The notes: generated by a model not told the origin, from the sequence alone. A stretch of 43,643 nt of DNA from Clostridiaceae bacterium (GCA_904501895.1 CAJGCX010000001.1:1-43643); one strand, 5' to 3'; positions 3,339 through 23,497 are shown, counted from the first letter of the stretch. Numbers and translations: made by a program.

Positions 3339-3375
3339 GCTTAATATAAGACTTGTAAACCTTGTTTTATAACTA

Positions 3376-3416
3376 AAAACAGCACCCACTATCCGTTAAG
3401 TAGTAGGTGCTGTTAA
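3376..3416. terminator. Bidirectional terminator between convergent genes
   Basis: Hairpin CAGCACCCACTA / TAGTAGGTGCTG (12 bp, one mismatch), flanked by an A-run on the left and T-rich sequence on the right. Confidence 0.6.
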
Positions 3417-3436
3417 TTAATCAACATGGTTTATAT

Positions 3437-4552: not shown

Positions 4553-4765
4553 AAAAATTTCCTCTCCTTTTAAGTCATATTCCTTACAAGTGAAATAAGT
4601 TTCCCTCCACATATACGTAATCGTATAAAATTGACTTTTTGTGACAAAAAATACAGAATTAATGTTATAAATTGGTAATATGGAAAGATAAGACTGGAAA
4701 AGTGTTGATGCATACAGAAAGAATAAATAATAGATGTTGGTTTTTGCTTAAATCTTTAATAAAGG

Positions 4766-4794
4766 TTGCTTTAATTTTTAAATTATGGTATCAT
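4766..4794 (+). promoter_or_regulatory. Putative sigma-A promoter of the methyltransferase gene
   Basis: TTGCTT (4766-4771), a 17-nt spacer, then TATCAT (4789-4794) preceded by an extended -10 TG (4786-4787). Confidence 0.45.
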
Positions 4795-4879
4795 ATTAAC
4801 CAGTTCAAAAATGGTTTTCTTTAGCAAGAAATTATATTTTGTTAATTAAAAATTGGTGGGCATTTGAAGGACAAGAATT

Positions 4880-5956: not shown

Positions 5957-5959
5957 TTG

Positions 5960-5994
5960 AATGTAGTATGCGTTTTAGCATACTACATTTTTTA
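5960..5994 (+). terminator. Rho-independent terminator directly after dcm
   Basis: Perfect 12-bp stem AATGTAGTATGC / GCATACTACATT with a 6-nt loop, followed by TTTTT. Confidence 0.75.
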
Positions 5995-6052
5995 TATCTA
6001 ACACTACATTTTTCATATATTGTAAATATTTGAAGATTTTATCACAAATATA

Positions 6053-6081
6053 TTGACAAATATTGTGAACAGGTGTAGAAT
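6053..6081 (+). promoter_or_regulatory. Putative sigma-A promoter of the GHKL-ATPase operon
   Basis: TTGACA (6053-6058), a 17-nt spacer, then TAGAAT (6076-6081). It is embedded in an imperfect inverted repeat, TTGACAAATATT ... AATATTGTCAA. Confidence 0.5.
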
Positions 6082-6113
6082 ATTGTCAAATCAAACAAAA
6101 TGGAGTGAAAAAT

Positions 6114-6332
6114 ATGGAAACAAAACGTGAAAAATTTGTAAGATTAGCAGAAGCAAGAACTAATAAAATCATTGATATGATTAGATTGTTAGGTAATTGT
6201 GCAAATAAATCTAACTATGACTATACAGATGCTGATATACAAAAAATATTTTCAACAATTGAAAAAGAATTAAAAAATACTAAAACAAAGTTCACTGTAA
6301 GTGACACAGAGGAAGAAAAATTTAGATTATAA
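6114..6332 (+). CDS. Small (72-aa) helical protein, first gene of the candidate operon
   Basis: ATG at 6114 with GGAG 8 nt upstream; the track ORF starts at GTG 6105. The sequence is METKREKFVRLAEARTNKIIDMIRLLGNCANKSNYDYTDADIQKIF.... I see no obvious HTH. Confidence 0.55.
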   Translation: METKREKFVRLAEARTNKIIDMIRLLGNCANKSNYDYTDADIQKIFSTIEKELKNTKTKFTVSDTEEEKFRL

Positions 6333-6352
6333 TTTGTGATAGGAGAGATAAG

Positions 6353-8248: not shown

Positions 8249-8261
8249 GGGGATTGGTGTT

Positions 8262-9158
8262 ATGAAAAAATCAAATATAAATTATCCACACCCAGTTTTA
8301 AGTGCAGCTAATGAAGATTACTTAAACTGTACCTTTGACATTGCTTTTGATAGTGACCCTGTTATACAAGGTGAGTTAGCCATAATTGAACTTTCGTATA
8401 ATCTTGAATGTGATGGGTTATCTAAAATGATTACTAATGGGGATGCAAAGGTGGTTGTATACCTTGAAAGTGTTGAAGCAGAGTATAGAAAAATTTTTGT
8501 TTTTCAGCCTGATTCAACTTCCTTGATAGTGAAGGAAAATAAAAATCTTTTTGGAAAGAACTTACAACTTAGATGTTACATAACTGCAGCTAAAGATATC
8601 TCCCCATTTTCCTTGTTAGAGCACAATAAGGGCTTGTTTGGGCCGATTCCTTTCAATGTGAAACGTGGAGATGTACTTGCTATATCAGAAAATTTTTATA
8701 ATATTCCTCTTGAAAATTATGACCCATTATCAGACAGACCATCAATTTTTTCTGTGAGAAGACAAACAGACAATCCTAAAGAAGAGATAATGGTAGATTT
8801 TGTCAGCCACGATAAAATTACCATTTTCCTTAATGATGATATTTTCGAAAAATATGATGAATTGTACCACGCTTCTGAAATTAGAATGTTTTTAGCATCT
8901 TTGTTTGCTGCACCAGTTTTGGTTGATGTTTTATCATATATTAAACACGCTGACCAAGATATGTTGGATTCGGTTTTAGATAAAAAATGGTATCAGGTGT
9001 TAAAATCACGTCTTTCAGAACTTGATATAGATTTATCTAAAGCAGATTCTATGACAACGGTTGCTAATATGGTTATTCCACATATTTTTAAGCAGAATAT
9101 TGAGCAATTTAAAGTCGTGTTTAAAGATTCATTACCGATGTCAGGAGATGAAGAATAA
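8262..9158 (+). CDS. Hypothetical 298-aa protein (no recognised motif)
   Basis: The ORF starts 13 nt after the ATPase stop and has an RBS (GGGGATTGG). It overlaps the next gene by 1 nt (TAATG at 9156-9160). Codon usage looks coding-like. Confidence 0.65.
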   Translation: MKKSNINYPHPVLSAANEDYLNCTFDIAFDSDPVIQGELAIIELSYNLECDGLSKMITNGDAKVVVYLESVEAEYRKIFVFQPDSTSLIVKENKNLFGKNLQLRCYITAAKDISPFSLLEHNKGLFGPIPFNVKRGDVLAISENFYNIPLENYDPLSDRPSIFSVRRQTDNPKEEIMVDFVSHDKITIFLNDDIFEKYDELYHASEIRMFLASLFAAPVLVDVLSYIKHADQDMLDSVLDKKWYQVLKSRLSELDIDLSKADSMTTVANMVIPHIFKQNIEQFKVVFKDSLPMSGDEE

Positions 9159-9919
9159 TGAAAGTAAAATATTTTACAGAATCAGCTTATTTGGAATTAT
9201 TCGATTCAATATCAAATAATCAAAACTTCTATTGTGTAGATAAATGTGATTGGATTGCAAAAAAATTTAAAGATACAAAATATTGTAAAGAATCAAGAAT
9301 TGATATTTCTTTGCCGGTACTTGAAAAAGGAAAAGATAGTGACTACACCAATATAGTTATGGTGCACAGTGCTTTTAAAGATAGGATTACACCAAAGCAG
9401 GCGAGTAATCCATATCTATGGACTTATTTAAGTCATTGTGAATATTGGGATTATACTTTTAATAGATGGTCAAAAGGTGATATTTCAGTAGGTGCAATAA
9501 AGGAACGATTCTTTTGTGGCACTGAAGAAGGTAATAGAATAGGTTTATTGAGAAACTCGATAGCTCGTTTGTGGTGGTATGGTCACTTAACTTTCTGTGA
9601 AGATTCTCCACGTCCATATAAACTTACAAAATTAATGATGAGCAATTCGGACCTGTGTCAAAGCATTATGGAACGAAAGTTTTCTATGAATAAAGAAATC
9701 ACAATTGGTATCTTAAGTGCAATTCAGGAAATTAATGACGACCCGACTCAAAAAGACGTAGGAGCAGTGTCAAATGGCGACCACTATGAGTGGAGACCAC
9801 TGTGCAAATACATAAATCGTTATGGTGGAGTAGTATTACTTGACACACTGACACGTGATGATATTAAAGAATTATCATATGATTTTTTAATGAAATATAG
9901 AAAAAAATGGGGTATTTAA
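9158..9919 (+). CDS. Hypothetical 253-aa Trp-rich protein (possibly DUF6339-type; unverified)
   Basis: The ORF is translationally coupled on both sides. Conserved-looking strings are NPYLWTYLSHCEYWDYTFNRW and NSIARLWWYGHL. The family assignment is from memory only. Confidence 0.55.
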   Translation: MKVKYFTESAYLELFDSISNNQNFYCVDKCDWIAKKFKDTKYCKESRIDISLPVLEKGKDSDYTNIVMVHSAFKDRITPKQASNPYLWTYLSHCEYWDYTFNRWSKGDISVGAIKERFFCGTEEGNRIGLLRNSIARLWWYGHLTFCEDSPRPYKLTKLMMSNSDLCQSIMERKFSMNKEITIGILSAIQEINDDPTQKDVGAVSNGDHYEWRPLCKYINRYGGVVLLDTLTRDDIKELSYDFLMKYRKKWGI

Positions 9920-9920
9920 T

Positions 9921-10385
9921 ATGCCAAACACAAACTGGTCAAAACTTAATCATTTGCAATTAGGGAAATACGCAGAGTATTATGCTAAAATGGAGTTTGC
10001 ATCTTACGGGTTTGAAGTATACACTTCAGAAGTGGATGACCATGGTGTGGATTTTATTGTAAAATCACCTGATAAGAATGAATTTTGTGAGGTGCAAGTC
10101 AAGTCTGTGCGTAATTACGGCTATGTATTTATCGCAAAATCTAAAATGCCTGAACTTATAGACAATAGACTTGTATGCTACTTGCATTTTGTTGATGGTC
10201 AGTTGCCTGATGTTTTTGTAATTCCTGCAACAGCGTGGAAAACACCTAATGCAGTTTTGGTTGACAGAAAATATGATAAGCCCGGTCAAAAGAGTGCACC
10301 TGAATGGGGGATTAGCATTTCAAGAAAAAATTATTCATTGTTGGATGATTACAGAGCAGATGAGTATTTTCTAAAAAATAAATGA
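9921..10385 (+). CDS. Small PD-(D/E)XK-fold nuclease-like protein (DUF4365-like)
   Basis: The N-terminal helix GKYAEYYAKMEFASYGFEV is followed by DDHGVDFIV and then EVQVKS. This is the D...(D/E)-x-K arrangement of restriction-endonuclease-like folds. The ORF starts 1 nt after the upstream stop. Confidence 0.6.
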   Translation: MPNTNWSKLNHLQLGKYAEYYAKMEFASYGFEVYTSEVDDHGVDFIVKSPDKNEFCEVQVKSVRNYGYVFIAKSKMPELIDNRLVCYLHFVDGQLPDVFVIPATAWKTPNAVLVDRKYDKPGQKSAPEWGISISRKNYSLLDDYRADEYFLKNK

Positions 10386-10429
10386 AATTTGCAGGTAGTC
10401 AGTATAAGCTGTAAAAGAGAGGTTTATAA

Positions 10430-11470
10430 ATGAATTTATTAAATGTAACAGTTTTACATAAATTGTGGAAACAAGGAACTATAGTTAAAGTTGATAATGA
10501 AAATTTGTGGGTAAAGTTTAACAACAAACCTATAAACAGGAATACAGATACTATCATGTTCTCATACCCGTCTGCTTTTGTTACTGGCTTCTTGAAAATA
10601 GTTGATAACGATGAATTGCAACAAGAAATTATGGCAGATGCCATTAAAAAAGAAGAACTTAAAAAGAAACAAATGTCTCAACAAGTAGTTGTTGTACCAA
10701 AAAACAATCCTGTAAAAAAACAACCTAAAAAACATTATGAAAGAGAAAATATTGCATTTAAATGTAATTATTGTGATGGTGGTGCTTCTGCATCTCAGAT
10801 AGGATATGCAGGAGTGTGCAGCAAAGCTGTAATTAAATATAATATTACCGAAGCAAAACGCACATGGTGTTCAAGTGAGCAGTGTGAATGCAACAGGTTT
10901 TTAAACGGTGAGTTAACATACAATGATTTGTGTGAAATTCATGCATCTAATAAATTTTTATGTTATGAAAGCGGTATGTTTATAAATTGGAAAGCTTCTG
11001 CTGGAACTGATGTAAAGAATGGAAAAATGGACAGACCTCGCAAACTGAAAAAAGTTCAGAAAAATAGCTTATGTATTCTTACTACTGTGAAACCTGATGC
11101 TCTTGAAACAGAACGTATGATTTTTGGTGTTTTTCTTGTTGATGAATCCTATGAAGGAGATAATCAAGCTGAGGGATATGTAACAACAAAGTCCAAATAC
11201 AAATTGAAACTTACCCCTAAAGAGGCAAAAGAGATATTGTTTTGGAATTATCATAAAAACTCTAATGACCAAGGAACTGCGCGATGGAGTTCAGGTTTGT
11301 ACCGTTATATTAATGATGTTGTATCTGCTCAAATATTGCGCGATATAGCTACAATAAAGAAAAATAGCCACGATGAAGAATTGGCAAAAGAATTTTTTGA
11401 ATATTATTGCAAGGTTAATAATGTTGATATAGATTCATTACCACAAAACAATGGAGCGTTATTAATATAA
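10430..11470 (+). CDS. Hypothetical 346-aa protein with a small N-terminal beta domain, a basic linker and a Cys-rich central module
   Basis: The ORF has RBS AGAGAGG. The Cys cluster FKCNYCDGG...GVCS...WCSSEQCECN...LCEIH...FLCYE suggests metal binding. The C-terminal domain (ERMIFGVFLVDE...ARWSSGLYRYIND) is of unknown fold. Confidence 0.6.
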   Translation: MNLLNVTVLHKLWKQGTIVKVDNENLWVKFNNKPINRNTDTIMFSYPSAFVTGFLKIVDNDELQQEIMADAIKKEELKKKQMSQQVVVVPKNNPVKKQPKKHYERENIAFKCNYCDGGASASQIGYAGVCSKAVIKYNITEAKRTWCSSEQCECNRFLNGELTYNDLCEIHASNKFLCYESGMFINWKASAGTDVKNGKMDRPRKLKKVQKNSLCILTTVKPDALETERMIFGVFLVDESYEGDNQAEGYVTTKSKYKLKLTPKEAKEILFWNYHKNSNDQGTARWSSGLYRYINDVVSAQILRDIATIKKNSHDEELAKEFFEYYCKVNNVDIDSLPQNNGALLI

Positions 11471-13361: not shown

Positions 13362-13410
13362 AAATAATTAGATTTTTTACAAGGTTAAATAGAAGAGTTT
13401 GAAAGAACAA

Positions 13411-13458
13411 AACACCTATGAGGTTAGATGAGTTTTCTAACTTCATAGGTGTTTTTTT
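13411..13458. terminator. Strong bidirectional terminator
   Basis: An 18-bp stem (AACACCTATGAGGTTAGA / TCTAACTTCATAGGTGTT, one G-U pair) is followed by a T7 run. It abuts the stop of the convergent regulator gene. Confidence 0.8.
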
Positions 13459-14542
13459 ATGAGAGCATAGCTATTATTTCTTTAAATTCTGCCATGTTTT
13501 TAAAGTCATCGGAGAATCCGTAATCATTCAGTATGCTATCTTTAAGATGCTTTGTTGCAACAAAATCTCTGTCATTGGTATACTTATCAAAAATGTACCC
13601 TTCAAATAAAGGAGAATGCATAGTGCTATATCTGTCTAGTGAATCAAATTTTATGGCAAGTTCTGCTGCTTTTTTTAGTTTAATTAGTGAGTTGTTGTAA
13701 TCGCCTTTGCGATAATAAAACAAAGAATTCACACCGTAACCAGAAAAAATCACAGCCTTCCACATAATACCATAGTTGCCATCATTGTAGATATAGTCTA
13801 GAGCCTTTATTATGTGTTCTTGTATTTCAATCTGATAGTCAACAGAAAAATAATCCGATTTGTAGTACCAACCTGACATCACATCAAAAAGTGCGTGTAT
13901 CAGAATTTCAAGTGTATGGTGCACTTCTTCTGCTGATTTGTTGAAATACTCATAAACAAAACAGTTAAACTCTCTGCCATCTCTTATAGAGGGTAGTTGC
14001 TTTATGACATTATCCACATCATCAAAGGTTACATCGCTACTTTTAAGTGATATCATTCGGAGAAGAAAAGAAATATAGTAGGTTTTAGCTTCAATGCGTA
14101 TTGCATCATTAGTACAGTTTTTCTGAATATTTTCATATATTGCTTTGACCTTTGAAACGTGCTCTGTAAATTCTTCATTATTGCTATTAAGAATTTTTCC
14201 GATATACCTTATCTGTACTCGAAAATCTGTGGGATATTTTTCTCTTAGTTTATCAAGAGTTTTCCATTTGCGGTCTACATCCCAGCGAAGACCGTCGTAT
14301 TCTTTCAGGAGAGCATCGAGTTCCTCTTCATCTTGAGCCTTGTTGATTCCCATAAGTTCATCAATACTAACTTTGAAAAAATCTGAAATAAGGGGAAGAA
14401 GAGTGATGTCGGGGTAACTTTCTCCACGTTCCCACTTGCTTATACTCTGAAAGGATACACCTAAAATTTGGGCGAGAGCCTCTTGTGTCAGGTCATTTGA
14501 CAACCTAAGACGCTTGATGTTTTCGCTAATATAAATAGTCAT
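13457..14542 (-). CDS. XRE-family HTH transcriptional regulator with a long helical (TPR-like) C-terminal domain
   Basis: HTH NIKRLRLSNDLTQEALAQILGVSFQSISKWERGESYPDITLL. I chose the start at MTIYISEN (Met19 of the track ORF 13457..14596). Confidence 0.8.
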   Translation of the reverse strand: MTIYISENIKRLRLSNDLTQEALAQILGVSFQSISKWERGESYPDITLLPLISDFFKVSIDELMGINKAQDEEELDALLKEYDGLRWDVDRKWKTLDKLREKYPTDFRVQIRYIGKILNSNNEEFTEHVSKVKAIYENIQKNCTNDAIRIEAKTYYISFLLRMISLKSSDVTFDDVDNVIKQLPSIRDGREFNCFVYEYFNKSAEEVHHTLEILIHALFDVMSGWYYKSDYFSVDYQIEIQEHIIKALDYIYNDGNYGIMWKAVIFSGYGVNSLFYYRKGDYNNSLIKLKKAAELAIKFDSLDRYSTMHSPLFEGYIFDKYTNDRDFVATKHLKDSILNDYGFSDDFKNMAEFKEIIAMLS

Positions 14543-14684
14543 TGTAATCACCTCGAAATTTAATGGTCTTGCAAGACTGATTATATAATAACTCAAAGGT
14601 AGGGAAAACTCAATAACGCTTTTGTTGAGAATTTTTCAACTAACGGTAGAGAAATTTAAGTTCCCATAATTTTGTGGGAGTTAA

Positions 14685-14727
14685 GTCCGTTTTTGTGTAC
14701 ACCGTTTACGATTACTCGAAAATTTTA
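14685..14727 (+). repeat. 43-nt repeat, 42/43 identical to 19660-19702; contains one CGTTTACGATTAC iteron
   Basis: GTCCGTTTTTGTGTACACCGTTTACGATTACTCGAAAATTTTA here, against the same string with A instead of T at position 31 at 19660-19702. Confidence 0.85.
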
Positions 14728-14854
14728 GAGTGTTGTATGGATATGTACGGCATTGCAGAGGTTGAAGCTTTTGTGTCAGGGGCGAAATTGGGTGTAAAAA
14801 TCATTGTTGAAACTTACACAGATAGTTCACAAAATTTTAAAGAGATATAAAAAT

Positions 14855-14889
14855 ACGCCTATGAGGTTAAATACTAGCTTCATAGGCGT
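14855..14889. terminator. Hairpin, probable terminator (T-run only on the minus strand)
   Basis: 12-bp stem ACGCCTATGAGG / CTTCATAGGCGT. The sequence is related to the 13411-13458 hairpin. Confidence 0.4.
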
Positions 14890-14996
14890 GAAATATTGTT
14901 GCAGATTTGTCGAAGAATTGAGTTCTATTCGATAATTTGAGAGTTGCTAAAACTGAGGCAGCACACCGAAATGCACTGCCCTTTGTTTTGTTCGTT

Positions 14997-15623: not shown

Positions 15624-15798
15624 TGTTTTTCCTCCTGAAAATTGTTGACTTCAATATTGGGAGGTTGGTGTGATTGTATTGCCAAACCTCCCGGTTAAAC
15701 TACAATCTCCAATGATTTGATTGTCTTTCTCAAAAAGCAATCTCCTTTAAAATAATATTTATAATCAAGCCTTTCGGCAGGATTAACTCAATAAACTA

Positions 15799-15826
15799 AT
15801 TATACCACTCACAAAACAAAAAGCAA
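15799..15826 (-). promoter_or_regulatory. Putative promoter with extended -10 (TGGTATAAT) for the GNAT gene
   Basis: On the minus strand: TTGCTT, a 16-nt spacer, then TGGTATAAT. The same module recurs at 23097-23126. Confidence 0.4.
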
Positions 15827-15846
15827 CAGTGAAAAATACTGTTGCT
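15816..15846 (-). terminator. Rho-independent terminator of the XRE/zinc-ribbon gene
   Basis: 9-bp stem AGCAACAGT / ACTGTTGCT, followed on the minus strand by a T-run. Confidence 0.6.
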
Positions 15847-15856
15847 CGTGTAGTTG

Positions 15857-16519
15857 TTATCTTTTTTTATATATAACCAATTCAGGATTTTCGCCATTTT
15901 CTTCATAGGTGCAGACAAGGATAAAGTCCATATTTGCCACGATGCCGAAGCATCTGTCACCACCGAATTCGCATTCCAACTGACTACCGAGGTAAGTTGC
16001 TTTGTCATCAAGAAATTTCACAACCTGTCCGTTAGGGAGTCGGTATTCAAGATTTACGAAACTGCCCGACAAAACATTCAGACTTTCCACTTTTGGTAAG
16101 CCTTCAATATTAAGAAGTGTGTTGATTTCATCGATGATTTTCTTTTTGAATTCCTCAAACATTTCCTTGCTGCCAATATGTGAATACTGTTTCCAATAAT
16201 CAAGGGTGAAATCACCATCAGCATAACACCATTTACAATATTCTTCGTTAAAAGTGCCATTGATTTCTTTGCTGATGTCAGCATCATTCAAGGGCATTCC
16301 ACAACATCCACAAACCAACTGACATGGAGAGCCTAAAAGCGTGTTGATAGACACATCAAATAGTTTTGACAAAAGTTTCAGGGTTTCTGTGTTAGGTGTG
16401 GTTTCACCATTTTCCCAACGGGACACTGCCTGACGAGTTACAAAAACTTTTTCTGCAAGTTCATCCTGTGATAAACCTTTTTTAGTTCTCAATTCAAGAA
16501 TAATATCCTTAGTTTCCAT
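15857..16519 (-). CDS. XRE-family HTH regulator fused to a zinc-ribbon-containing C-terminal domain
   Basis: HTH LRTKKGLSQDELAEKVFVTRQAVSRWENGETTPNTETL, followed by the Cys motifs CGCCGMPL ... YCKWCY. Confidence 0.8.
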   Translation of the reverse strand: METKDIILELRTKKGLSQDELAEKVFVTRQAVSRWENGETTPNTETLKLLSKLFDVSINTLLGSPCQLVCGCCGMPLNDADISKEINGTFNEEYCKWCYADGDFTLDYWKQYSHIGSKEMFEEFKKKIIDEINTLLNIEGLPKVESLNVLSGSFVNLEYRLPNGQVVKFLDDKATYLGSQLECEFGGDRCFGIVANMDFILVCTYEENGENPELVIYKKR

Positions 16520-16602
16520 TAAATCTCACCTCAAAAATATTATACCATTAACAACTTCAATGAACAAGCAACTCGCTGTTGCGATGCAGGGAGTGATATT
16601 TT

Positions 16603-16700
16603 ATACTCTGCAACGATATGGGGTACTGTGTAAACGATTACCCATACTCTGTAAACGATTTGGGGTACTTTGTAAACGATTACTTTTGCGATGTGTACTT
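16603..16700 (+). repeat. Iteron array: three exact-core plus two degenerate direct repeats TACTnTGTAAACGATT at 21-bp phasing
   Basis: GTAAACGAT starts at 16630, 16651 and 16672, exactly 21 bp apart. Degenerate copies lie at about 16609 (TGCAACGAT) and about 16687 (TTGCGAT). Confidence 0.8.
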
Positions 16701-16737: not shown

Positions 16738-16829
16738 GGCATAAAAAAGACCGAAACCCCTATATTTCAAGGGATTTCTCGTGTATCAATACCGAGGTAC
16801 TGAGGTGGTCGTCATGACAGGAGTCGAAC
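16738..16829 (-). repeat. Junction module copy 1: terminator hairpin plus a degenerate copy of the tRNA-Pro 3' end
   Basis: 16806-16829 reads TGGTCGTCATGACAGGAGTCGAAC, against TGGTCGGAGTGACAGGAGTCGAAC in the tRNA gene at 23394-23417. The segment 16753-16809 is identical to 19842-19898. Confidence 0.8.
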
Positions 16830-17069
16830 TAGTTTAGGTATTAAGAATTCGGATTAAAACATAGAAATGTTTATGGGAAAATGTGTAAATATTTTCATTT
16901 CTGCTTATCAACAAAATCTTCAGCATCGAGATGCCTGATAAACGAGTGAAAAATAAAGAAAGAGATGTAAAAAGTTCCTACATAAACAATCCCATCTTGT
17001 TTTTTATCACTATCAAATTCGCAACAACGATTTTAGTAATGCGGCTGTTGTGGATAGGAGGGGAAATAG

Positions 17070-17282
17070 ATGAAATATGTAGCTTTGCCACATTTTACAA
17101 AGGTTGAAAACAAAATAGTAAAGACATGTGCTATTATTGCTTTCAAAAAACATATTCCTGTTAAGGTTGTGAAAGATGTATCTTTAGATGTTAAAGCAGT
17201 TCAAGATTTAGTTAAGAAATTAAACGAAAACGAAGTTGAACTTGTACATCTTTATGATGTTATAGAAGATTTCTTATTCTAA
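17070..17282 (+). CDS. Small 70-aa hypothetical protein, paralog of 19069..19287
   Basis: RBS GGAGGGG. It shares its start (MKY), an I-[IV]-A core and the LNE-x-x-V-x-L C-terminal helix with the 19069 ORF. From memory it may belong to the DUF6514 type. Confidence 0.5.
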   Translation: MKYVALPHFTKVENKIVKTCAIIAFKKHIPVKVVKDVSLDVKAVQDLVKKLNENEVELVHLYDVIEDFLF

Positions 17283-17363
17283 TAACATACATCATTATAT
17301 AAGTCAAATCTTGCTTTATGTGTCGAATTAATGTATAATTTTTCCAAAAAGGGGAGATTATAT

Positions 17364-17909
17364 ATGCTGTCAATATGCTTAGCGTTACTTCAAAATCCAG
17401 AAGACAAACTGCGATTTGAAGAGTTTTATAACAAATTTTATAATACAATTTATTTCATTGCGAAAGACCATTTAAAAACTAAAGAAGCAGCCGAGGACTG
17501 TGCGCAAGAAATAATGATTCGTTTTGCGAAAGACTTCCATAACATAAAGCAAGAGTTTGACGATAAAAGTTTTAAGAATTACGTTCGAGTAGTAGCAAAA
17601 GGCATTTCAATTGATATGTATCGTAAGGAGAAGAAACATATTGAACACGTTGTAGATGCTGATTTAACAGAATTTCGTAATCTTTCTGTTGATGAATTTG
17701 AGGTTTGCGACACAATGCTTTTAAAACAAGCTGTTGATGCAATGCCTGAATCATATAAATATGTTTTCTGTCTAAAATATTATTATGAATTCAGTGGTGC
17801 AGAAATTTCTGCAAAAACAGGAATATCAGAAACATCTGTCAGACAAAAATGTATGCTCGGAATGAAATTTGTTAGAAATTATATAAAGGAAGCAGAGAAT
17901 AATGACTAA
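17364..17909 (+). CDS. Sigma-70-family (ECF-like) RNA polymerase sigma factor
   Basis: Region 2 (AEDCAQEIMIRFAK..., YVRVVAKGISIDMYRKE) and the region 4 HTH (FSGAEISAKTGISETSVRQKCMLGMKFVR) are present. The start at 17364 has AGGGGAG 7 nt upstream. Confidence 0.8.
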   Translation: MLSICLALLQNPEDKLRFEEFYNKFYNTIYFIAKDHLKTKEAAEDCAQEIMIRFAKDFHNIKQEFDDKSFKNYVRVVAKGISIDMYRKEKKHIEHVVDADLTEFRNLSVDEFEVCDTMLLKQAVDAMPESYKYVFCLKYYYEFSGAEISAKTGISETSVRQKCMLGMKFVRNYIKEAENND

Positions 17910-18531
17910 TTTAGCAAAAGCTTGTGAATTGTCGCTCAACGACTGGTTAGCAACTTTTCCTGATACAATCCCTGAAGCAGAGCGTAGCAAAAAACACGAA
18001 AAATGGAAGAAAAACCTTTTTAACAAAATGCGTGATGACCATTATCACAGGTTTACAACGAGAACCATTAAAGTGATGTTGGTGGCAGCAATTTTATGTG
18101 CATTGTTGTTGACAGCATTTGTTATTCCGTCATCAAGGGAATTTATGCTTGATAAGTTTGATATTGCAAGTAGATACAAAATTACTGAAAATAATAAAAA
18201 TTCTGTTTCTGGTGAAATTACTGTTGGATATATACCAGATGGGTTTCAATTAGAAACTAAAGATGTATTGGAGAAACTAGTTCAATCCAAATATATTGCA
18301 AAAAATGGTCAGTTTTTTACTATTTTTAAGTGCACATCATCAATTGAAGTTTATTTTGATACTGAAAATTATTTATCGGAAGAAATTATAGTTGATGGTA
18401 TTGAATATATTTATTGTCAAGGAAATTTAAATATGAATAATTTGATTTGGACAAAAAATGATTATGTTTATAGGATTGATGGCACACTTTCTAAAGATGA
18501 GTTTATAAAAATTGCCAAAACAGTAGATTAG
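17902..18531 (+). CDS. Putative anti-sigma factor (single TM, DUF4367-like ectodomain)
   Basis: It overlaps the sigma gene by 8 nt. It has one TM helix (VMLVAAILCALLLTAFVIP) and the ectodomain motif GYIPDGFQL. Confidence 0.6.
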   Translation: MTNLAKACELSLNDWLATFPDTIPEAERSKKHEKWKKNLFNKMRDDHYHRFTTRTIKVMLVAAILCALLLTAFVIPSSREFMLDKFDIASRYKITENNKNSVSGEITVGYIPDGFQLETKDVLEKLVQSKYIAKNGQFFTIFKCTSSIEVYFDTENYLSEEIIVDGIEYIYCQGNLNMNNLIWTKNDYVYRIDGTLSKDEFIKIAKTVD

Positions 18532-18584
18532 ACTAACAAAATCTTCCTTAATTACGATATAGTGAGTTAAGGGAGGTGAAAACA

Positions 18585-18989
18585 ATGTCAAATATCAAAA
18601 AAAGTCTTAGTGTTGTTTTAATTTTTACAATGCTTTTTTCAGTTTTTGTAATTAATACTTCTGCTAACACAGTTGAAGAAGAAAATGCTATAATGCCACG
18701 CTTTTCTACAATTAGTGCAATTTCAACATCCTTTACTATCAGTGGATTAAATTCAACTTCCACAGTTTCTCTGTCAGCAAAGTATTCAACATCACTTTAC
18801 ATTAAGATAGAGTTGCAAAAAGAAAAATCAACAGGCTATGAAACTATTGAAACTTGGACTAAGTCAGGTACAGGTACAATGCTTGCTCTCGAAGAAAACA
18901 GACTTATCAATATTTTCAGTGATTACAGAATTAAAGTAACTTGTACAGCTGGTAGCGAAACATATACAGTATACGACTATCCGGATTAA
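18585..18989 (+). CDS. Small secreted protein (signal peptide, beta-rich)
   Basis: The N-terminus MSNIKKSLSVVLIFTMLFSVFVINTSA looks like a signal peptide. GGGAGG lies 8 nt upstream of ATG 18585. Confidence 0.6.
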   Translation: MSNIKKSLSVVLIFTMLFSVFVINTSANTVEEENAIMPRFSTISAISTSFTISGLNSTSTVSLSAKYSTSLYIKIELQKEKSTGYETIETWTKSGTGTMLALEENRLINIFSDYRIKVTCTAGSETYTVYDYPD

Positions 18990-19068
18990 TCTAGAAAAAA
19001 ACAACCTCTGTGAGTAATTGCAGGGGTTGTTTGACTATCTTCAAGAATGTTTATAAGGAGAATTGGAA

Positions 19069-19287
19069 ATGAAATATGAGGTCTTTTCTCATAAGGTCAC
19101 AATTGAGGGAGAAATAATTGATACCTTTGGTATTGTTGCAACAGACCAACAGGGGAATACATATACTTTTGATGACATTACTACATCAAGGGAATACCTT
19201 GAAAAGTTTGTTGCATTTCTTAACGAAGAAAATGTTTCTCTTAAGTGCTTTAAAATATTTCTTGAACTCTTTATAGATAGTTTATAG
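19069..19287 (+). CDS. Small 72-aa hypothetical protein, paralog of 17070..17282
   Basis: AAGGAG lies 8 nt upstream of ATG 19069. The architecture is similar to the 17070 ORF. Confidence 0.5.
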   Translation: MKYEVFSHKVTIEGEIIDTFGIVATDQQGNTYTFDDITTSREYLEKFVAFLNEENVSLKCFKIFLELFIDSL

Positions 19288-19297
19288 GCAACAAAAA

Positions 19298-19319
19298 GGA
19301 CTGGTGTAAAAACCAGTCC
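19298..19319. terminator. Bidirectional terminator hairpin between convergent genes
   Basis: 8-bp stem GGACTGGT / ACCAGTCC with A/T runs on both sides. Confidence 0.5.
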
Positions 19320-19323
19320 AATT

Positions 19324-19557
19324 TTAATATTCTTTTACCTTTTTAATACATTCTTCACACAAAGAAAGTTCTTCATTTACATTTTCTGCTGTGCCACATA
19401 ATTTGCATTTTGGTGTAACCACCTCAATGGTCAGTTTGCCATCATTCTCATATAATACAACCTTTGTACCTGTGCTTATATTCATTTTATTACGATATTC
19501 TTTCGGTAAAACAATTCTTCCTGCCTCATCCACTGTCTTGACTGTACCATAGAGCAT
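19324..19557 (-). CDS. AbrB/MazE/SpoVT-family DNA-binding protein with a C-terminal CxxC...CxxC zinc ribbon
   Basis: The SpoVT-AbrB swapped-hairpin signature is VDEAGRIVLPKEYRNKMNISTGTKVVL. The C-terminus reads CKLCGT...CEECIK. The start is taken at MLYGTVK. Confidence 0.75.
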   Translation of the reverse strand: MLYGTVKTVDEAGRIVLPKEYRNKMNISTGTKVVLYENDGKLTIEVVTPKCKLCGTAENVNEELSLCEECIKKVKEY

Positions 19558-19659
19558 AGTTATCACCATTTCCTTGTCGAATTTTGTTGTATTACACCAC
19601 CAATATACTAAAAATGGCAAAAAATGTCAAGTTTTAGTCTTTCTCCTTGTGACAATTAT

Positions 19660-19775
19660 GTCCGTTTTTGTGTACACCGTTTACGATTACACGAAAATTT
19701 TATACTTCGTTTACGATTTGTACTTTTAGGGCATGCTCCGTTTACGATATGGTATACTCCGTTTACGATTACTAT
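19660..19775 (+). repeat. Iteron cluster: four direct copies of (C/T)CGTTTACGAT(T/A)
   Basis: CGTTTACGAT starts at 19678, 19708, 19739 and 19760. The first 43 nt duplicate 14685-14727. Confidence 0.8.
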
Positions 19776-19841
19776 TTTTGAGACATTCTGAAAACAAAAA
19801 AAGCACCCTAAAAAGAGTGCTTAATCTGCTTGGAAAATGAA

Positions 19842-19918
19842 GAAACCCCTATATTTCAAGGGATTTCTCGTGTATCAATACCGAGGTACTGAGGTGGTGG
19901 TCGTGACAGGAGTCGAAC
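19842..19918 (-). repeat. Junction module copy 2: terminator hairpin plus a degenerate tRNA-Pro 3' end
   Basis: 19898-19918 reads TGGTCGTGACAGGAGTCGAAC, which is the tRNA 3' end with a 3-nt deletion. The upstream 57 nt are identical to copy 1. Confidence 0.8.
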
Positions 19919-19936
19919 GAGATTTTTATATATTGA

Positions 19937-21433
19937 TTACATCAAACCTAATTTGAATTTAATGTTTGCAATTACTCGTTTTATTTTTAATGAACGTTGT
20001 GTTTTTGGAGAAAGGTCTTCTTTGAAATCAAGATTTTCACTGTTGATTTCATTGATTATGCCATCATTTGAAACACTAAAAATTGTGTATTTAAGATGTG
20101 CAGCCTCGTCTTCATAGAAAACTGCAAAATTCCCGTCAGAAAGTTCAGTTAAGCAGGAATAACCATAAAATCCCTGTGTTAAATGATATTTGCTAATCCA
20201 GTTAATCTGACCATCATCTTCTGTAATACCAACACGAAGCACACCATCTGCTCTTGCTTTAAGATTTCCTCCAGCTGAGCAAAGAATTACTTGTTTTTCG
20301 TTAATTTTTTTGCTTGTTTCCATAAGTGAAACCATACAGTTTTTTGTACCCTCAAGGGACTTGTCTGCACGGAATGTTGTCCAAGTTTCTCCGCCATCAA
20401 GACTGTCAGAATATGCTATATAGTTGCTCAGGTTTCTTGCATACATACGAAGTGCTTTGTAATTTTTGCCTTCGATTTTTACAAGCTGAGCTTCACTTGT
20501 TTTGCCAATACCTTTTTTGATTTTTATTTTATTACTTCTGTGCCAAGTCATACCGTTGTCATCAGAATAAATTGCACTTGCGTTTTCGAAAATAGGGTCT
20601 TTAAAGAGTCCGTTATTATCATAAACACAGAATAAAATTCTTTCTTTTCCGTTATGATTAATAACCATGCCACGACCTGGACCAACACCTAAAAATGATT
20701 CTTTTTCATTTTTTACAAACTCTGAAACGATTTGTGGAGCACTCCAGGTTTTACCATTGTCGTCAGAATATCTCAACCATAAATAAGTGGTTTTATAGCA
20801 TTTTAATTCTGATGCACTATAAAAAATATTCTGTTGAACTTTCACCTTTTCAGAGCCTTTTTGTTCTGTATAAAGTGGCTCGTCGTTTTTATAAAGACGA
20901 AATTCACGGTCGATTGAATATTCTGTAATTTTGTTATCATTTCTTGTAAAAACAGGTGCAAAATCGTTTTCAAAATCGCCAACATAAAACTTGAAGGTGT
21001 CTAATTTATCGCCGTGATTACCATTTGTGAGAAGAAGATGTTTTTTGCCGTTGATATCGCAGAAGCCTGTACCGGTCTTGCACTGAAGATATCCGCATTC
21101 TGATGGTTGAGCATCAACAAGCATAAAAATTCGCCCAGTACTTGACTGCACAATAACAGAGTCAATAAATGATGCACTGTCAGTTGATGTGACTGTATCG
21201 GCATAGTCATCAAAATGGTTGACCATTATATAATCCCAGCTATCATATCCGTCTTTTGAAATTGCTACAGCTATATCAATGTTGTTAGGGGAGTCTGACC
21301 CGTGACTGTAACGGATATCTGCACCTGCTATAATACTGCCATCATTGAGAGTGTAAAGAGCAGGAATACGATTGCGTTCAGAAGCAAATTCTTTATTGTC
21401 AAAAATTTGCTCATAAATGATTTTTGAATTCAT
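19937..21433 (-). CDS. Exo-alpha-sialidase (GH33, BNR/Asp-box repeats), no signal peptide visible
   Basis: RIP motif (ERNRIPALYTL) plus the Asp-boxes YSDDNGKTWS, YSDDNGMTWH and SDSLDGGETWT. Confidence 0.85.
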   Translation of the reverse strand: MNSKIIYEQIFDNKEFASERNRIPALYTLNDGSIIAGADIRYSHGSDSPNNIDIAVAISKDGYDSWDYIMVNHFDDYADTVTSTDSASFIDSVIVQSSTGRIFMLVDAQPSECGYLQCKTGTGFCDINGKKHLLLTNGNHGDKLDTFKFYVGDFENDFAPVFTRNDNKITEYSIDREFRLYKNDEPLYTEQKGSEKVKVQQNIFYSASELKCYKTTYLWLRYSDDNGKTWSAPQIVSEFVKNEKESFLGVGPGRGMVINHNGKERILFCVYDNNGLFKDPIFENASAIYSDDNGMTWHRSNKIKIKKGIGKTSEAQLVKIEGKNYKALRMYARNLSNYIAYSDSLDGGETWTTFRADKSLEGTKNCMVSLMETSKKINEKQVILCSAGGNLKARADGVLRVGITEDDGQINWISKYHLTQGFYGYSCLTELSDGNFAVFYEDEAAHLKYTIFSVSNDGIINEINSENLDFKEDLSPKTQRSLKIKRVIANIKFKLGLM

Positions 21434-21496
21434 CTTGTTTCTCCTTAGTTAAATAAGAAATGTTTATATACAGCAATTATATCATTAAAAAAATAA

Positions 21497-21557
21497 AAGT
21501 ACAACAGTTTGTATTAAAACCGTTGTACTTAAGTGGTCGAGATGACAGGAGTCAAAC
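21497..21557 (-). repeat. Junction module copy 3: a different terminator hairpin plus a degenerate tRNA-Pro 3' end
   Basis: 21534-21557 reads TGGTCGAGATGACAGGAGTCAAAC. The hairpin AGTACAAC/GTTGTACT has a minus-strand T-run. GTTGTACTTA(A/G)GTGGTCG is shared with copy 4. Confidence 0.7.
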
Positions 21558-21577
21558 ATATGATATCCTCTTTTCAA

Positions 21578-21608
21578 AGAAAAAGCAACAGTTTTCAGGC
21601 TGTTGCTT
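21578..21608 (-). terminator. Rho-independent terminator of the GH32-ABM operon
   Basis: 9-bp stem AAGCAACAG / CTGTTGCTT, followed on the minus strand by a T-run. Confidence 0.65.
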
Positions 21609-21629
21609 ATGGGTTTAATTCATAATAGT

Positions 21630-21962
21630 TTATTCTTTAATAAATGCTTTATCTTTTTCGGGGATACCTGATTCGTTGAAAACATATCGTTCGACTTTCA
21701 TACTCAAATCATACTTTTCACGCAAGTCGATGATTTTTTGCATCATCGGTGATTTGTGGTGAATGTCGAGTACTTGTTGATTTTCCCAACTGTCAATTAA
21801 GAGAACAGTTTCATCATCATTCATGGGTAAAAAGTATTCATATTTCAAATTGCCTTTCTGGGCACGAATTTCGTCAACAATGCCACTTGAAAGCATTTCA
21901 TCTGCGAACTTTCTTGCGTTTCCGTTTGTGCCTGAATAGTAAATGTTTATTGTTATTGCCAT
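21630..21962 (-). CDS. ABM (antibiotic biosynthesis monooxygenase-like) domain protein
   Basis: The ~110-aa ferredoxin-like pattern includes LLIDSWENQQVLDIHHKSPMM. The start is taken at MAITINIYY, with AGAGGTGA upstream. Confidence 0.6.
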   Translation of the reverse strand: MAITINIYYSGTNGNARKFADEMLSSGIVDEIRAQKGNLKYEYFLPMNDDETVLLIDSWENQQVLDIHHKSPMMQKIIDLREKYDLSMKVERYVFNESGIPEKDKAFIKE

Positions 21963-21983
21963 TTTATCACCTCTTAAATCCAT

Positions 21984-23066
21984 TTATAGCAAAACAGAAT
22001 AAATTTCTTCGCCACCGTTGACAAATACTTCTAAAATATATCCGTCACGAATGATTTTAAGGTCTTTGATTTCACCTTCAAAAACAACGCTCTTACGGTG
22101 TGTTCGCTTGATTTTAAATCCGTTTTTCTTGCGTATAACTGACGAATCACTGTCAGTGAGCAAACGCTGTACTTCTTCTACTGGATACCCATAGATTCTT
22201 CCGTCAATCAACTTAATTTCACGTGGCACAGACATACAACCAATATCTTTTTTCTTGTAACCTGCATATTTCCAACCAGGTAGCCAGGAAATAAGGATTG
22301 TTCTTCCCTTGTGGTCAAGAAATACCTGACCTGCATATTGGTCGGGTCCTTTGTCCACTTCACCCGTGTATTCAGGTGTGAATTTTCCGTCTTCGAAAGT
22401 GCCATACATTACAGAAAAGTGATGACTGTCTTCTTTGCAGACAGAAGCAGTAAGCAAGTATTTATCTCCCGATTTCATAAATGACGGACACTCGGCAAAC
22501 TTTGAGTTTTCCCATTCGCACAAAATGCCCTTATACTCCCAATTAAACAGGTCTTCACTTTTGTATAACAAAAGATTTGCAGTTTTCTTTTCACGGTTAC
22601 CCGATGCCATTACGCAATAATAATTGCTATCGGAATAACACACGGCAGGGTCACGAAAATCAGGACAACCATCAGCAGGAAAACCACCAATAATAGGATT
22701 GTTTTCATATTTTTCAAAGTTAATTCCGTCAGTTGAATAAGCAACGCTTACTGATTGAACACCATCATGAATGGAAGCATAAAAGAGAAAAAGGGTATCG
22801 TCTCTGACAATTGCCGTGCCTGACCAGCAACCGTCTTTATCGTATGGCTTATCAGGGAAAAGTGCAACAGGCAATTCTTCAAAATCCAAGAAATTCTTTG
22901 TTCGTGCATGTCCCCAATGCATACTCTCTTTCCATGGCTTTTCAAAATTGGGTGAATGCTGATAAAAAATATGGTAATAGCCGTTAAAATATACAAGTCC
23001 GTTAGGGTCGTTAATCCAACCTTTTTTAGTTGCAAAATGGAATTTCAGTGGTGTACGATAATTCAT
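21984..23066 (-). CDS. Glycoside hydrolase family 32 (beta-fructofuranosidase / sucrose-6-phosphate hydrolase-like), short C-terminal domain
   Basis: The GH32 catalytic motifs are present: WINDPNG, FRDP and ECP (FAECPSF). At 360 aa it is shorter than the ~480 aa I expect for SacA-type enzymes. Confidence 0.85.
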   Translation of the reverse strand: MNYRTPLKFHFATKKGWINDPNGLVYFNGYYHIFYQHSPNFEKPWKESMHWGHARTKNFLDFEELPVALFPDKPYDKDGCWSGTAIVRDDTLFLFYASIHDGVQSVSVAYSTDGINFEKYENNPIIGGFPADGCPDFRDPAVCYSDSNYYCVMASGNREKKTANLLLYKSEDLFNWEYKGILCEWENSKFAECPSFMKSGDKYLLTASVCKEDSHHFSVMYGTFEDGKFTPEYTGEVDKGPDQYAGQVFLDHKGRTILISWLPGWKYAGYKKKDIGCMSVPREIKLIDGRIYGYPVEEVQRLLTDSDSSVIRKKNGFKIKRTHRKSVVFEGEIKDLKIIRDGYILEVFVNGGEEIYSVLL

Positions 23067-23096
23067 ATAAGCCCTCTTTTCGTTTTCGTTGAATCA

Positions 23097-23126
23097 ATTA
23101 TACCATTCACCCAAAACAAAAAGCAA
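23097..23126 (-). promoter_or_regulatory. Putative promoter with extended -10 (TGGTATAAT) for the GH32 gene
   Basis: On the minus strand: TTGCTT, an 18-nt spacer, then TGGTATAAT, about 30 nt upstream of the start codon. It is nearly the same module as 15799-15826. Confidence 0.45.
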
Positions 23127-23144
23127 CCATTTCAGAATCTTTAA

Positions 23145-23234
23145 GGCATAAAAAGACCGAAACCCCTATATTTCAAGGGTTTTCGGTTGTATTATCTAAG
23201 TTGTACTTAGGTGGTCGGAGTGACAGGAGTCGAA
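23145..23234 (-). repeat. Junction module copy 4: terminator hairpin plus a perfect 23-nt copy of the tRNA-Pro 3' end
   Basis: 23212-23234 (TGGTCGGAGTGACAGGAGTCGAA) is identical to 23394-23416. The hairpin ACCGAAACCC/GGGTTTTCGGT has a minus-strand T-run. The left part is shared with copy 1. Confidence 0.85.
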
Positions 23235-23353
23235 TACTAGACTCACAATGCGAATGGGGGATTCGCATTGTGCTCTTCACTAAAAACAATCCACCGGATT
23301 GTTTTCTTAACGCTCAGACCTATCGGTTCGACTCCTTACTATCAAAAGCGAAC
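23235..23353. other. Highly structured non-coding mini-insert between the two perfect 23-nt repeats
   Basis: It contains a perfect 12-bp hairpin CACAATGCGAAT/ATTCGCATTGTG and a perfect 9-bp hairpin AAACAATCC/GGATTGTTT. An inverted 11-nt copy of the tRNA T-arm (GGTTCGACTCC, 23325-23335) can pair with 23226-23234. Confidence 0.4.
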
Positions 23354-23393
23354 AAAAAAATAGCAGCCTCAACCGAAGTTGAAACTGCTATTT
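23354..23393 (-). terminator. Rho-independent terminator immediately after tRNA-Pro
   Basis: Stem AATAGCAG/CTGCTATT with an inner TCAAC/GTTGA extension, followed on the minus strand by T7. Confidence 0.7.
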
Positions 23394-23469
23394 TGGTCGG
23401 AGTGACAGGAGTCGAACCTGCGGCATCCACATCCCAAATGTGGCGCGCTACCAGCTGCGCTACACCCCG
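23394..23469 (-). tRNA. tRNA-Pro (anticodon UGG), CCA encoded
   Basis: The minus strand reads CGGGGTGTAGCGCAGCTGGTAGCGCGCCACATTTGGGATGTGGATGCCGCAGGTTCGACTCCTGTCACTCCGACCA. It folds into a cloverleaf by hand, with a 7-bp acceptor stem (one G-U), a D arm GCGC/GCGC, an anticodon stem CCACA/TGTGG, loop TTTGGGA, and T loop TTCGACT. Confidence 0.92.
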
Positions 23470-23497
23470 AAGTATGCTGTTTTTCGTCAGCTTTGAT

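Follow-up and report, generated by a model that had tools for sequence, protein, structure and literature searches.

How does an array of partial tRNA genes come to separate small, unrelated sets of genes, none of which carries an integrase? This question is raised by a 43,643 nt (43.6 kb) stretch of DNA from a Clostridiaceae bacterium (GCA_904501895.1 CAJGCX010000001.1:1-43643), referred to here as the window, in which an intact tRNA-Pro(TGG) gene stands at the right-hand end of an array (16738-23469) containing four displaced copies of the 3′ end of tRNA-Pro and the intervals E1 to E4. It is judged moderately probable that the stretch between about 16.7 and 23.4 kb represents an additive island seeded by the tRNA, formed by site-specific insertions catalysed in trans and later reshaped by deletion and linker exchange.

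The tRNA-Pro gene, its displaced 3′ ends and the mini-element E1

The repeated sequence of the array is the last 24 nt of tRNA-Pro(TGG). With up to two mismatches allowed, the 15-mer TGACAGGAGTCGAAC has five matches in the window, all on the plus strand (16815, 19904, 21543, 23221, and 23403), where 0.04 are expected; five or more were found in none of 100 shuffles. The intact gene and the four fragments, labelled A to D from left to right, are:

23394-23469, minus strand: intact tRNA-Pro(TGG), found by ARAGORN and by the Rfam tRNA model at 66 bits; the sole tRNA gene of the window
23212-23234, minus strand: fragment copy D, 23/23 identical to the tRNA 3′ end, stopping at the T-loop
21534-21557, minus strand: fragment copy C, reading TGGTCGAGATGACAGGAGTCAAAC
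19895-19918, minus strand: fragment copy B, ungapped reading TGGTGGTCGTGACAGGAGTCGAAC
16806-16829, minus strand: fragment copy A, reading TGGTCGTCATGACAGGAGTCGAAC

An earlier, sequence-only reading of this DNA had reported four direct repeats to the left of the tRNA, and the strings it quoted were all exact; its gapped copy at 19898 can equally be read as 19895-19918 with no gap. All four truncated copies have the same right boundary, GAGTC(G/A)AA(C/T), at the 5′ edge of the T-loop. This breakpoint is shared by 24 related truncated fragments, with at least five unrelated right-hand sequences across species; at L041, L051, L043, L079, and L061b (L numbers denote related loci and contigs) the breakpoint is instead in the anticodon loop. 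The copies are genuine tRNA-Pro 3′ fragments, and their exact end at the T-loop is a classic mark of site-specific integration. The locus has the layout of a tRNA-seeded island, with an intact tRNA at one end, four direct 23-24 nt repeats of its 3′ part beyond, and repeat boundaries at canonical crossover positions (the T-loop here, the anticodon loop at other loci). The acceptor part of copy C is of the tRNA-Pro(CGG) type known from L046, L057, L065, and L076; although from a different isoacceptor, it is still able to pair with the resident tRNA by means of two G-U pairs.

The interval next to the tRNA is the simplest of the four.

23235-23393, minus strand: E1, a non-coding mini-element of 159 nt, between the tRNA and copy D
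23357-23394, minus strand: the present terminator of the tRNA, which is the tRNA-proximal arm of E1; the same arm is present in L055

Within E1 lie a copy of the tRNA T-arm in inverted orientation (23325-23335, plus strand) and, on the minus strand at 23280-23313, a conserved hairpin motif made up of GCGTTAAGAAAAC, 13 nt, and GTTTTTAG; the RNA fold of E1 has a z of -6.1. Bordered by the intact tRNA end and the 23/23 copy D, E1 is a textbook insertion between direct repeats (DRs) that restores the tRNA. Relatives are present in L050, L053, L055, L057, L061, L063, L089, and 16 IMG/VR contigs, the one in L055 in the same position. Related mini-elements (minis) of about 150-285 nt, single or in tandem, are found in L043, L053, L057, L061, L063, L079, and L089, and homologous minis, likewise single or in tandem, stand at tRNA-Pro(TGG/CGG) in eight genomes other than this one. 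They share a layout of tRNA terminator, inverted T-arm copy, and then GCGTTAAGAAAAC-hairpin-GTTTTTAG. In six of ten cases the inverted T-arm copy matches its own target over 12-19 nt, as against 4-9 nt for other targets.

The core motif of E1 recurs in 16 IMG/VR contigs (L096-L111), several of which hold minis at other tRNA 3′ ends with 14 nt DRs. In three of these contigs (L096, L098, and L099) the mini architecture is no more than about 400 nt away from genes for large serine recombinases. In L098 and L099 the architecture is directly downstream of these genes; in L096 the DR is abutted by a serine recombinase with the domains Resolvase, Recombinase, Zn_ribbon_recom, and DUF4368, and a tyrosine integrase stands beyond a tRNA-Met half. 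Given this proximity, the minis may be minimal non-autonomous derivatives of recombinase-bearing elements, consisting of the att-proximal arms of such elements joined together. An IS110 bridge RNA and a TnpB omega-RNA were also considered for E1 and dropped, being incompatible with DRs of 23 nt.

GC-rich copies of the E1 core motif also occur inside phage genomes, without a tRNA. A type-b mini in L053 (CALFTO010000062.1) is bordered by a tRNA-Pro fragment at one end, whereas its other end has an intact tRNA-Met and an inverted T-arm that is Met-like; either two tRNA loci with minis have been rearranged with each other, or the assembly is chimeric.

Cassette cargo and the linker between cassettes

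The other three intervals, E2 (21558-23211), E3 (19919-21533), and E4 (16830-19897, of which 16830-19671 is cargo), contain genes. Domains were called with Pfam, which gave the same cargo as the sequence-only reading: a sigma/anti-sigma module, a sialidase, and GH32 with ABM.

21558-23130, minus strand: E2 cargo, with promoter, GH32, ABM, and terminator in that order
23126-23121 (-35) and 23102-23097 (-10), minus strand: E2 promoter
21984-23066, minus strand: GH32 (Pfam)
21630-21983, minus strand: ABM (Pfam)
21608-21583, minus strand: E2 terminator
19919-21496, minus strand: E3 cargo, a promoter and a BNR sialidase (Pfam)
19937-21433, minus strand: the BNR sialidase, its stop codon just 18 nt from copy B
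17070-17282: DUF6514 (E4, Pfam)
17331-17909: sigma factor, Sigma70_r2/r4 (E4, Pfam)
17902-18531: anti-sigma protein, DUF4367 (E4, Pfam)
18576-18989: 137-aa protein (E4)
19063-19287: second DUF6514 (E4, Pfam)
19324-19620, minus strand: AbrB/MazE-like protein (E4, Pfam)

Orthologues of the GH32 and ABM proteins (94 % aa) are present in L116, between unrelated genes and with no tRNA fragment, and the homology between the window and L116 (90 % nt) spans 23127-21576, from promoter to terminator only. Further GH32 orthologues are located in glycoside hydrolase operons. Sialidase orthologues (84-89 % aa) are either part of a PGM-sialidase-GH43 operon (L113-L115) or stand alone, with no tRNA, fragment, or module nearby; the part of the window that is homologous to L112 extends exactly from 21519 to 19937 and covers only promoter and open reading frame (ORF). 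By these comparisons E2 and E3 are ordinary host-type transcription units, not decayed integrative and conjugative elements (ICEs) or integrative and mobilisable elements (IMEs). At the orthologous tRNA-Pro/321-aa-protein locus of L055, the tRNA, mini, and fragment are present and the GH32 and sialidase cassettes are absent. There the fragment after the mini runs directly into a type 2 module, therefore E2 and E3 are extra DNA bounded by fragments.

E4, which includes plus-strand genes, has homologues at 82-88 % nt identity in three other species (L076, L059, and L073), and no match by blastn in INPHARED or PLSDB. In L076 the homologue directly abuts an intact tRNA-Pro(CGG) on one side and has a fragment on the other, and its left junction, which is the right-hand junction of copy A between GAGTCGAAC and TAGTTTAGG, is shared with the window. 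The tRNA-proximal arm in L076 has one 21 nt repeat and a simple terminator without the 80 nt module core, therefore the core is separable.

On the strand of the tRNA, each fragment runs into a trailer module or what is left of one:

23131-23211, minus strand: trailer module type 1, with hairpin CCTAAGTACAACTTAG and terminator 23182-23160 (nhmmer E = 5e-27)
21497-21533, minus strand: truncated trailer, in which the 5′ half of the module hairpin serves as terminator stem (terminator 21530-21497)
19801-19894, minus strand: trailer module type 2, with terminators 19862-19846 and 19822-19801 (nhmmer E = 1.5e-24)
19672-19775, minus strand: four 21-nt-spaced repeats of ATCGTAAACG, upstream of the promoter 19630-19602
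16739-16805, minus strand: trailer module, type 1/type 2 hybrid, with terminator 16778-16753 (nhmmer E = 2e-26)
16601-16687, minus strand: three to four 21 nt repeats, each of ATCGTTTACA, upstream of the gene for the HTH_3/Zn_ribbon_2 protein (15857-16519, minus strand)

A terminator-like hairpin thus follows every copy, as had been claimed from the sequence; these terminators come from a scan that gave 17 terminator pairs. The full order on the tRNA strand is CCA, CC, a 7 bp hairpin, terminator 1 (CCCTTGAAATATAGGGG), 21-nt-spaced repeats, and a sigma-70-type promoter, with a second terminator before the repeat array at A and B. The repeat core ATCGTWWACR has eight matches, where 0.57 are expected. 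Three stretches that the sequence-only reading had quoted as common to pairs of copies are all real: 57 identical nt at copies A and B (16753-16809 and 19842-19898), GCATAAAAA(A)GACCGAAACCCCTATATTTCAAGGG at both 16739 and 23146, and GTTGTACTTA(A/G)GTGGTCG at both 21522 and 23200. The surroundings of A and B are 95 % identical over 83 nt, the maximum length shared among the copies.

This trailer is not confined to the window. A 26-mer from the module was found at 53 loci in 48 species-representative genomes, all of them Acutalibacteraceae, Ca. Fimenecus, or Oscillospiraceae metagenome-assembled genomes from ruminant and human gut, where the composite of hairpin, two terminators, 21 nt tandem repeats, and promoter is 130-350 nt long. 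At 14 loci the module begins right after the CCA of an intact gene, which is tRNA-Pro(TGG) at four, tRNA-Pro(CGG) at seven, and tRNA-Leu(GAG), tRNA-Leu(CAA), and transfer-messenger RNA (tmRNA) at one each. In 24 cases it follows a truncated tRNA-Pro fragment, and it also stands beside a protein-coding oxidoreductase operon. Left of the module (L038-L090) there are 2-10 of the 21 nt repeats, of at least four sequence types and often two types per array, followed by a conserved promoter/5′ untranslated region (UTR) block of about 100 nt joined to first genes of very different kinds, among them DUF5131, glycosidases, kinases, GNAT, and secreted proteins. Several loci (L058, L065, L076, and L090) have two to three co-oriented copies; some linkers (L058, L076a, and L090) have no fragment. 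Many of the module matches are found 150-550 nt from the end of a contig, as is usual for a multi-copy repeat. The long sequence shared around the fragments is a portable linker of the whole family and is not locus-specific. The sequence-only reading had named membership of a longer, scattered, non-tRNA family as what would speak against it; the family is indeed longer and dispersed, but it is nonetheless anchored on tRNA ends.

Several other candidates for parts of the linker were dropped. For the 21 nt repeats, the ends of Tn7-like or CRISPR-associated transposons do not suit a repeat number of 2-10 and the absence of transposition genes; for the GTAAACGAT repeat, the consensus of catabolite-responsive element (cre) sites of CcpA fits one repeat type only; and an attC-like fold of the promoter palindrome reached a z of just -2.7 to -3.0. 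When Rfam covariance models were run on the module and E1, the tRNA alone passed, the next best being throat-1 (16 bits against a gathering threshold of 124).

Other features of these linkers were also noted. Within the window, 21-nt-spaced direct repeats (core ACTCCGT / ATCGTWWACR) are present at 14703-14712, 16601-16687, and 19672-19775, and these three arrays precede the promoters of minus-strand regulators, a 379-aa HTH_3 protein, the HTH_3 and Zn_ribbon_2 protein, and the AbrB-like protein, respectively. The 5′ UTR motif GTTCGATAAATAAGAATTTG also occurs inverted (GTTCGATAAATTGGAATTTG), giving 20 nt inverted repeats, which flank a promoter of about 60 nt in L069 (4462-4564) and L089 (1037-1139) and a two-gene cassette in L067 (around 1200); they may be an invertible promoter or terminal inverted repeats. 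The terminator-hairpin 20-mer AAACCCCTATATTTCAAGGG, with the same 8-10 nt loop, is exact in 30 IMG/VR viral contigs (L004-L033) in at least eight unrelated sequence contexts, the wider module being common to L021 and L024 only. Close relatives of the window's IS21-like rve protein (60-1538), together with an IstB-like gene, are inserted in the trailer module at one and the same point, between TTAGG and TGTCTAAC, in at least five other genomes (L044, L088, L038, L042, L054, L024), which suggests a target preference for the hairpin-CCA junction.

A second recurrent linker, GCAACAG-loop-CTGTTGC TTTTTGTTTTG N6-8 TGGTATAAT, fuses a terminator to a promoter whose -35 is built from the 3′ stem and T-tract of the terminator. 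It is found in the window at 15798-15847, 21576-21608, and 23096-23130 and in L116 at 1145-1212 and 2690-2750, and in a related species, too, ordinary genes lie behind it. Lastly, another recurrent hairpin family, CACCTATGAGGTT...ACTTCATAGGTG (13406-13458, 14854-14890; also L038), is a bidirectional terminator between island genes.

Origin of the array

No recombinase is encoded in cis. Pfam gave no recombinase domain for any ORF between 12 and 24 kb of the window, in agreement with the earlier statement that the intervals hold no integrase, and no recombinase, relaxase, or type IV secretion system domain in the cassettes. The window has no Phage_integrase match and lacks the IntI, attI, and Pc of an integron; its cassette ends are tRNA 3′ fragments and the adjoining hairpins are terminators, not attC-type palindromes. 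By Pfam it has neither the lineage-specific tyrosine or large serine recombinase nor the replication module of a tycheposon. The 53 related loci were searched by motif screen, blastp clustering, Pfam on 150 representative ORFs, targeted Pfam, and tblastn with five recombinases, and a cognate integrase, whether tyrosine or large serine, was found neither there nor in the window. The only link to recombinases is through the serine recombinases adjoining homologous minis in L096, L098, and L099.

Individual candidates were rejected on inspection. Outside the array, the 379-aa ORF 13457-14596 is an HTH_3 regulator, the 391-aa ORF 3437-4612 is DUF4062, and the sole DDE enzyme of the window is an IS21-like (IstA) 492-aa rve protein (60-1538, minus strand). 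A weak Phage_int_SAM_5 match in a 351-aa ORF of L041 did not hold up. A phage attP carrying this tRNA end was also sought; the 23-mer matched only one jumbo-phage tRNA, and the module-plus-fragment pattern matched only real phage tRNAs. Searching the literature by sequence strings gave nothing relevant. Next to the IS21-like element is a low-GC (0.30-0.33) defence-like block (1723-11470) with DUF2806/Abi_alpha, DUF4062, a C-5 cytosine methylase, a 631-aa protein, DUF6339, and DUF4365.

The fragment itself behaves as a recombination joint. In 10 species an orthologous fragment lies 19 nt after the stop codon of the oxidoreductase gene; its T-arm part is 0.964 conserved, much like the ORF end (0.952), as against 0.90 for the spacer and 0.878 for the acceptor part. 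The module to its left alternates between two types with the switch at AGGTGGT. Acceptor variants, module types, and right-hand flanks assort independently, which fits recombination in the fragment, yet homologous exchange between linkers must occur as well.

For the tRNA-seeded island, we infer the recombination events, the nature of their helper, and the sequence in which the cassettes came in as follows. A recombinase encoded elsewhere, most likely the large serine recombinase of a prophage or ICE-like element and possibly a tyrosine integrase, would join an element-borne tRNA-Pro 3′ end (T-loop to CCA) with the tRNA gene. At each insertion the incoming DNA would supply a new tRNA 3′ end and trailer terminator, and the old 3′ end and trailer would be moved farther from the tRNA. 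Repeated insertion, deletion, and homologous exchange between near-identical linkers would then leave the four displaced fragments that delimit E1-E4. The cassettes would not be self-mobile; at best they would be excised or re-inserted in trans, or in cis with a helper, and at worst they would be fixed scars. That successive insertions took place at the tRNA end was also the proposal of the sequence-only reading. The T-loop ends, the regeneration of the tRNA by E1, and the differences in cassette content between species (L055 and L076 as against the window) support it; polymorphism within the species, which it would also predict, was not seen.

A number of observations weigh against this island. 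Apart from the IS21-like rve transposase at 60-1538, the 43.6 kb window has no recombinase, and nothing in the 53 related loci is convincing as one. Two ENA samples of the same species have the same order at 99.9-100 % identity; the variation seen at the tRNA-Pro locus is between species. Neither a circular junction nor an empty site was seen, two metagenome pattern scans had no hits, and exact-protein look-ups for strain polymorphism returned only short contigs or the identical arrangement. The acceptor parts of copies A and B (CATGACG and CACGACC) are unable to pair with the 5′ strand of this tRNA, therefore simple stacking with the newest next to the tRNA is not the whole story. In L076, where the resident tRNA is CGG, the displaced fragment cannot have come from that tRNA, being of the TGG type, and this points to additional homologous exchange. 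The module also adjoins tRNA-Leu and tmRNA genes, which have different 3′ ends, and E2 and E3 have no element backbone and have orthologues at non-tRNA loci.

Some of these points suit a different origin, which is the main rival though clearly less likely: the tRNA-like end may be one module of a BOX-like intergenic mosaic, with the fragments as old scars travelling in the linker. After DNA uptake, homologous recombination or gene conversion between near-identical linkers would add, remove, and shuffle the cassettes, with no dedicated recombinase. The spread of the composite over 53 loci in 48 genomes, beside different tRNAs and the oxidoreductase operon, its two to three co-oriented copies at four loci, the contig breaks 150-550 nt from the module, and the independent assortment of its parts all agree with a mosaic, as do the host-like cargo of E2 and E3, whose homology stops inside linker modules and not at the fragment, and the second, genus-wide terminator-promoter linker beside ordinary genes in L116. 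A mosaic, however, leaves unexplained the exact fragment ends in the T-loop or anticodon loop, the DR-flanked minis that regenerate intact tRNAs, and the coding-like conservation of the T-arm part; homologous recombination can reshuffle an array but cannot create tRNA-end duplications. Local duplication, in which the 3′ flank of the tRNA was copied in tandem in place, then diverged and received unrelated genes, is very improbable. In its favour are the common orientation of the copies and the 95 % identity of A and B over 83 nt, but the intervals have nothing in common except linkers, identical pairings of fragment and junction are found at other loci and in other species, and the acceptor of copy C is from a different tRNA-Pro isoacceptor.

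That T-arm conservation, coding-like next to a variable acceptor triplet, could also be read as the mark of an active integron-like platform, in which the T-arm part of the fragment and the trailer hairpin form an attC-like site in every cassette and a dedicated recombinase elsewhere would take up cassettes with their promoters and rearrange them at tRNA 3′ ends. All cassettes have the same orientation and stop 18-23 nt short of a fragment, the conserved promoter and 5′ UTR are joined to very diverse first genes, and the cargo consists of single host-type units, as in integron cassettes. Such a platform is nevertheless unlikely: none of the 53 loci has a recombinase associated with it, E4 has plus-strand genes, linkers at L058, L076a, and L090 lack fragments, no attC-like conserved secondary structure was demonstrated for the fragment, and an att site derived from a tRNA is the simpler explanation. 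A broader proposal, speculative and improbable though a little less so, is of a family-wide gene-capture platform in Acutalibacteraceae/Ca. Fimenecus, in which a tRNA-end recombination site is fused to a portable insulator-promoter linker (hairpin, two terminators, a 21 nt repeat array of variable size, promoter, and 5′ UTR). Single host transcription units would be packaged as cassettes, and large serine recombinases acting in trans would stack these at tRNA-Pro, tRNA-Leu, tmRNA, and secondary sites. The minis of 150-280 nt with their target-matched inverted T-arm copy would be minimal non-autonomous members, and the whole would be a functional analogue of an integron.

Independent assemblies from the same species (L001-L003, L092, L093) break just outside the tRNA, at window positions 23481, 23535, and 23603; further breaks are at 16893, which is 64 nt beyond copy A, and at 17720, within the sigma gene. 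Either the repeats or population heterogeneity could cause this.

If mobilisation in trans takes place, uncultured gut Clostridia would build and exchange small accessory units, such as glycosidases and regulators, at tRNA genes without one integrase per unit, and the principle of ssrA islands, staphylococcal cassette chromosome (SCC) elements, and tycheposons would reach a new bacterial family with cassettes of one or two genes. If the array is merely a fixed scar, it is an ordinary additive island. The conserved linker can serve as a marker for such islands in metagenome-assembled genomes, where it is a likely cause of assembly breaks, and the minis with their target-matched inverted T-arm offer a handle on how a recombinase selects its tRNA.

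Comparison with known systems

The ssrA islands of Dehalococcoides are site-specific, with direct repeats of about 20 bp and insertion mid-T-loop; they are about 12 kb long, and 16 of 31 carry the serine recombinase module DsiB (PMC3146451). As here, the islands are in tandem downstream of one small-RNA gene with extra sequence conservation around the repeats, and roughly half are without an integration module and were discussed as possible cis-mobilisable elements (CIMEs). The view that repeating a tRNA end together with its terminator is unusual was therefore overstated, since similar extra conservation surrounds those repeats (PMC3146451). An incoming element must supply the tRNA 3′ end and the terminator comes along, therefore the combination is not so unusual. 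In contrast to those islands, a recombinase module is present in none of the four cassettes and none of the 53 related loci, the target is tRNA-Pro here and tRNA-Leu or tmRNA in relatives, and the cassettes are only 0.16-3 kb with a common terminator-repeat-promoter linker.

A likeness to the accretion of streptococcal CIMEs and ICEs had been suggested from the sequence. Elements flanked by att sites, without integration or transfer genes and in tandem at the 3′ end of a gene, are common to both (PMC5704250), and E1-E4 are each bounded by fragment copies in the manner of attL and attR. CIMEs, however, are by definition decayed ICEs or IMEs that have retained attL and attR (PMC5704250). E2 and E3 have no ICE or IME remnant and are host-type units with orthologues at non-tRNA loci, therefore the label does not fit these two, and no cognate ICE or integrase was identified here.

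What defines a tycheposon is its lineage-specific tyrosine recombinase together with genes for replication (10.1101/2020.12.28.424599). The Prochlorococcus islands that they seed resemble this one in their tRNA seeds (there including Pro-TGG and tmRNA), in elements separated only by partial tRNA copies, and in scattered partial tRNAs, most island DNA there being leftover and not element DNA. They differ in that the defining genes are absent here, the host is of another phylum, and the linker has no counterpart in their description.

SCC composites at rlmH consist of tandem cassettes bordered by direct repeats that copy a conserved gene's 3′ end, and some of these cassettes lack recombinase genes (ccr-less pseudo-SCC) and are moved in trans by large serine recombinases. 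Unlike here, their target is protein-coding and the cassettes are larger, and no Ccr homologue was found in this locus. Integron arrays likewise have small, co-oriented cassettes with one recombination site each and a recombinase acting in trans. This locus, unlike an integron, has no IntI, attI, or attC, and each cassette has its own promoter and terminators and a site derived from a tRNA.

The closest precedents that the array appears to resemble are the Dehalococcoides ssrA islands, tycheposon-seeded islands, and SCC composites. The kind of system is known; this variant is set apart by its very small host-type cassettes, its family-wide linker, and its minis with a target-matched inverted T-arm.

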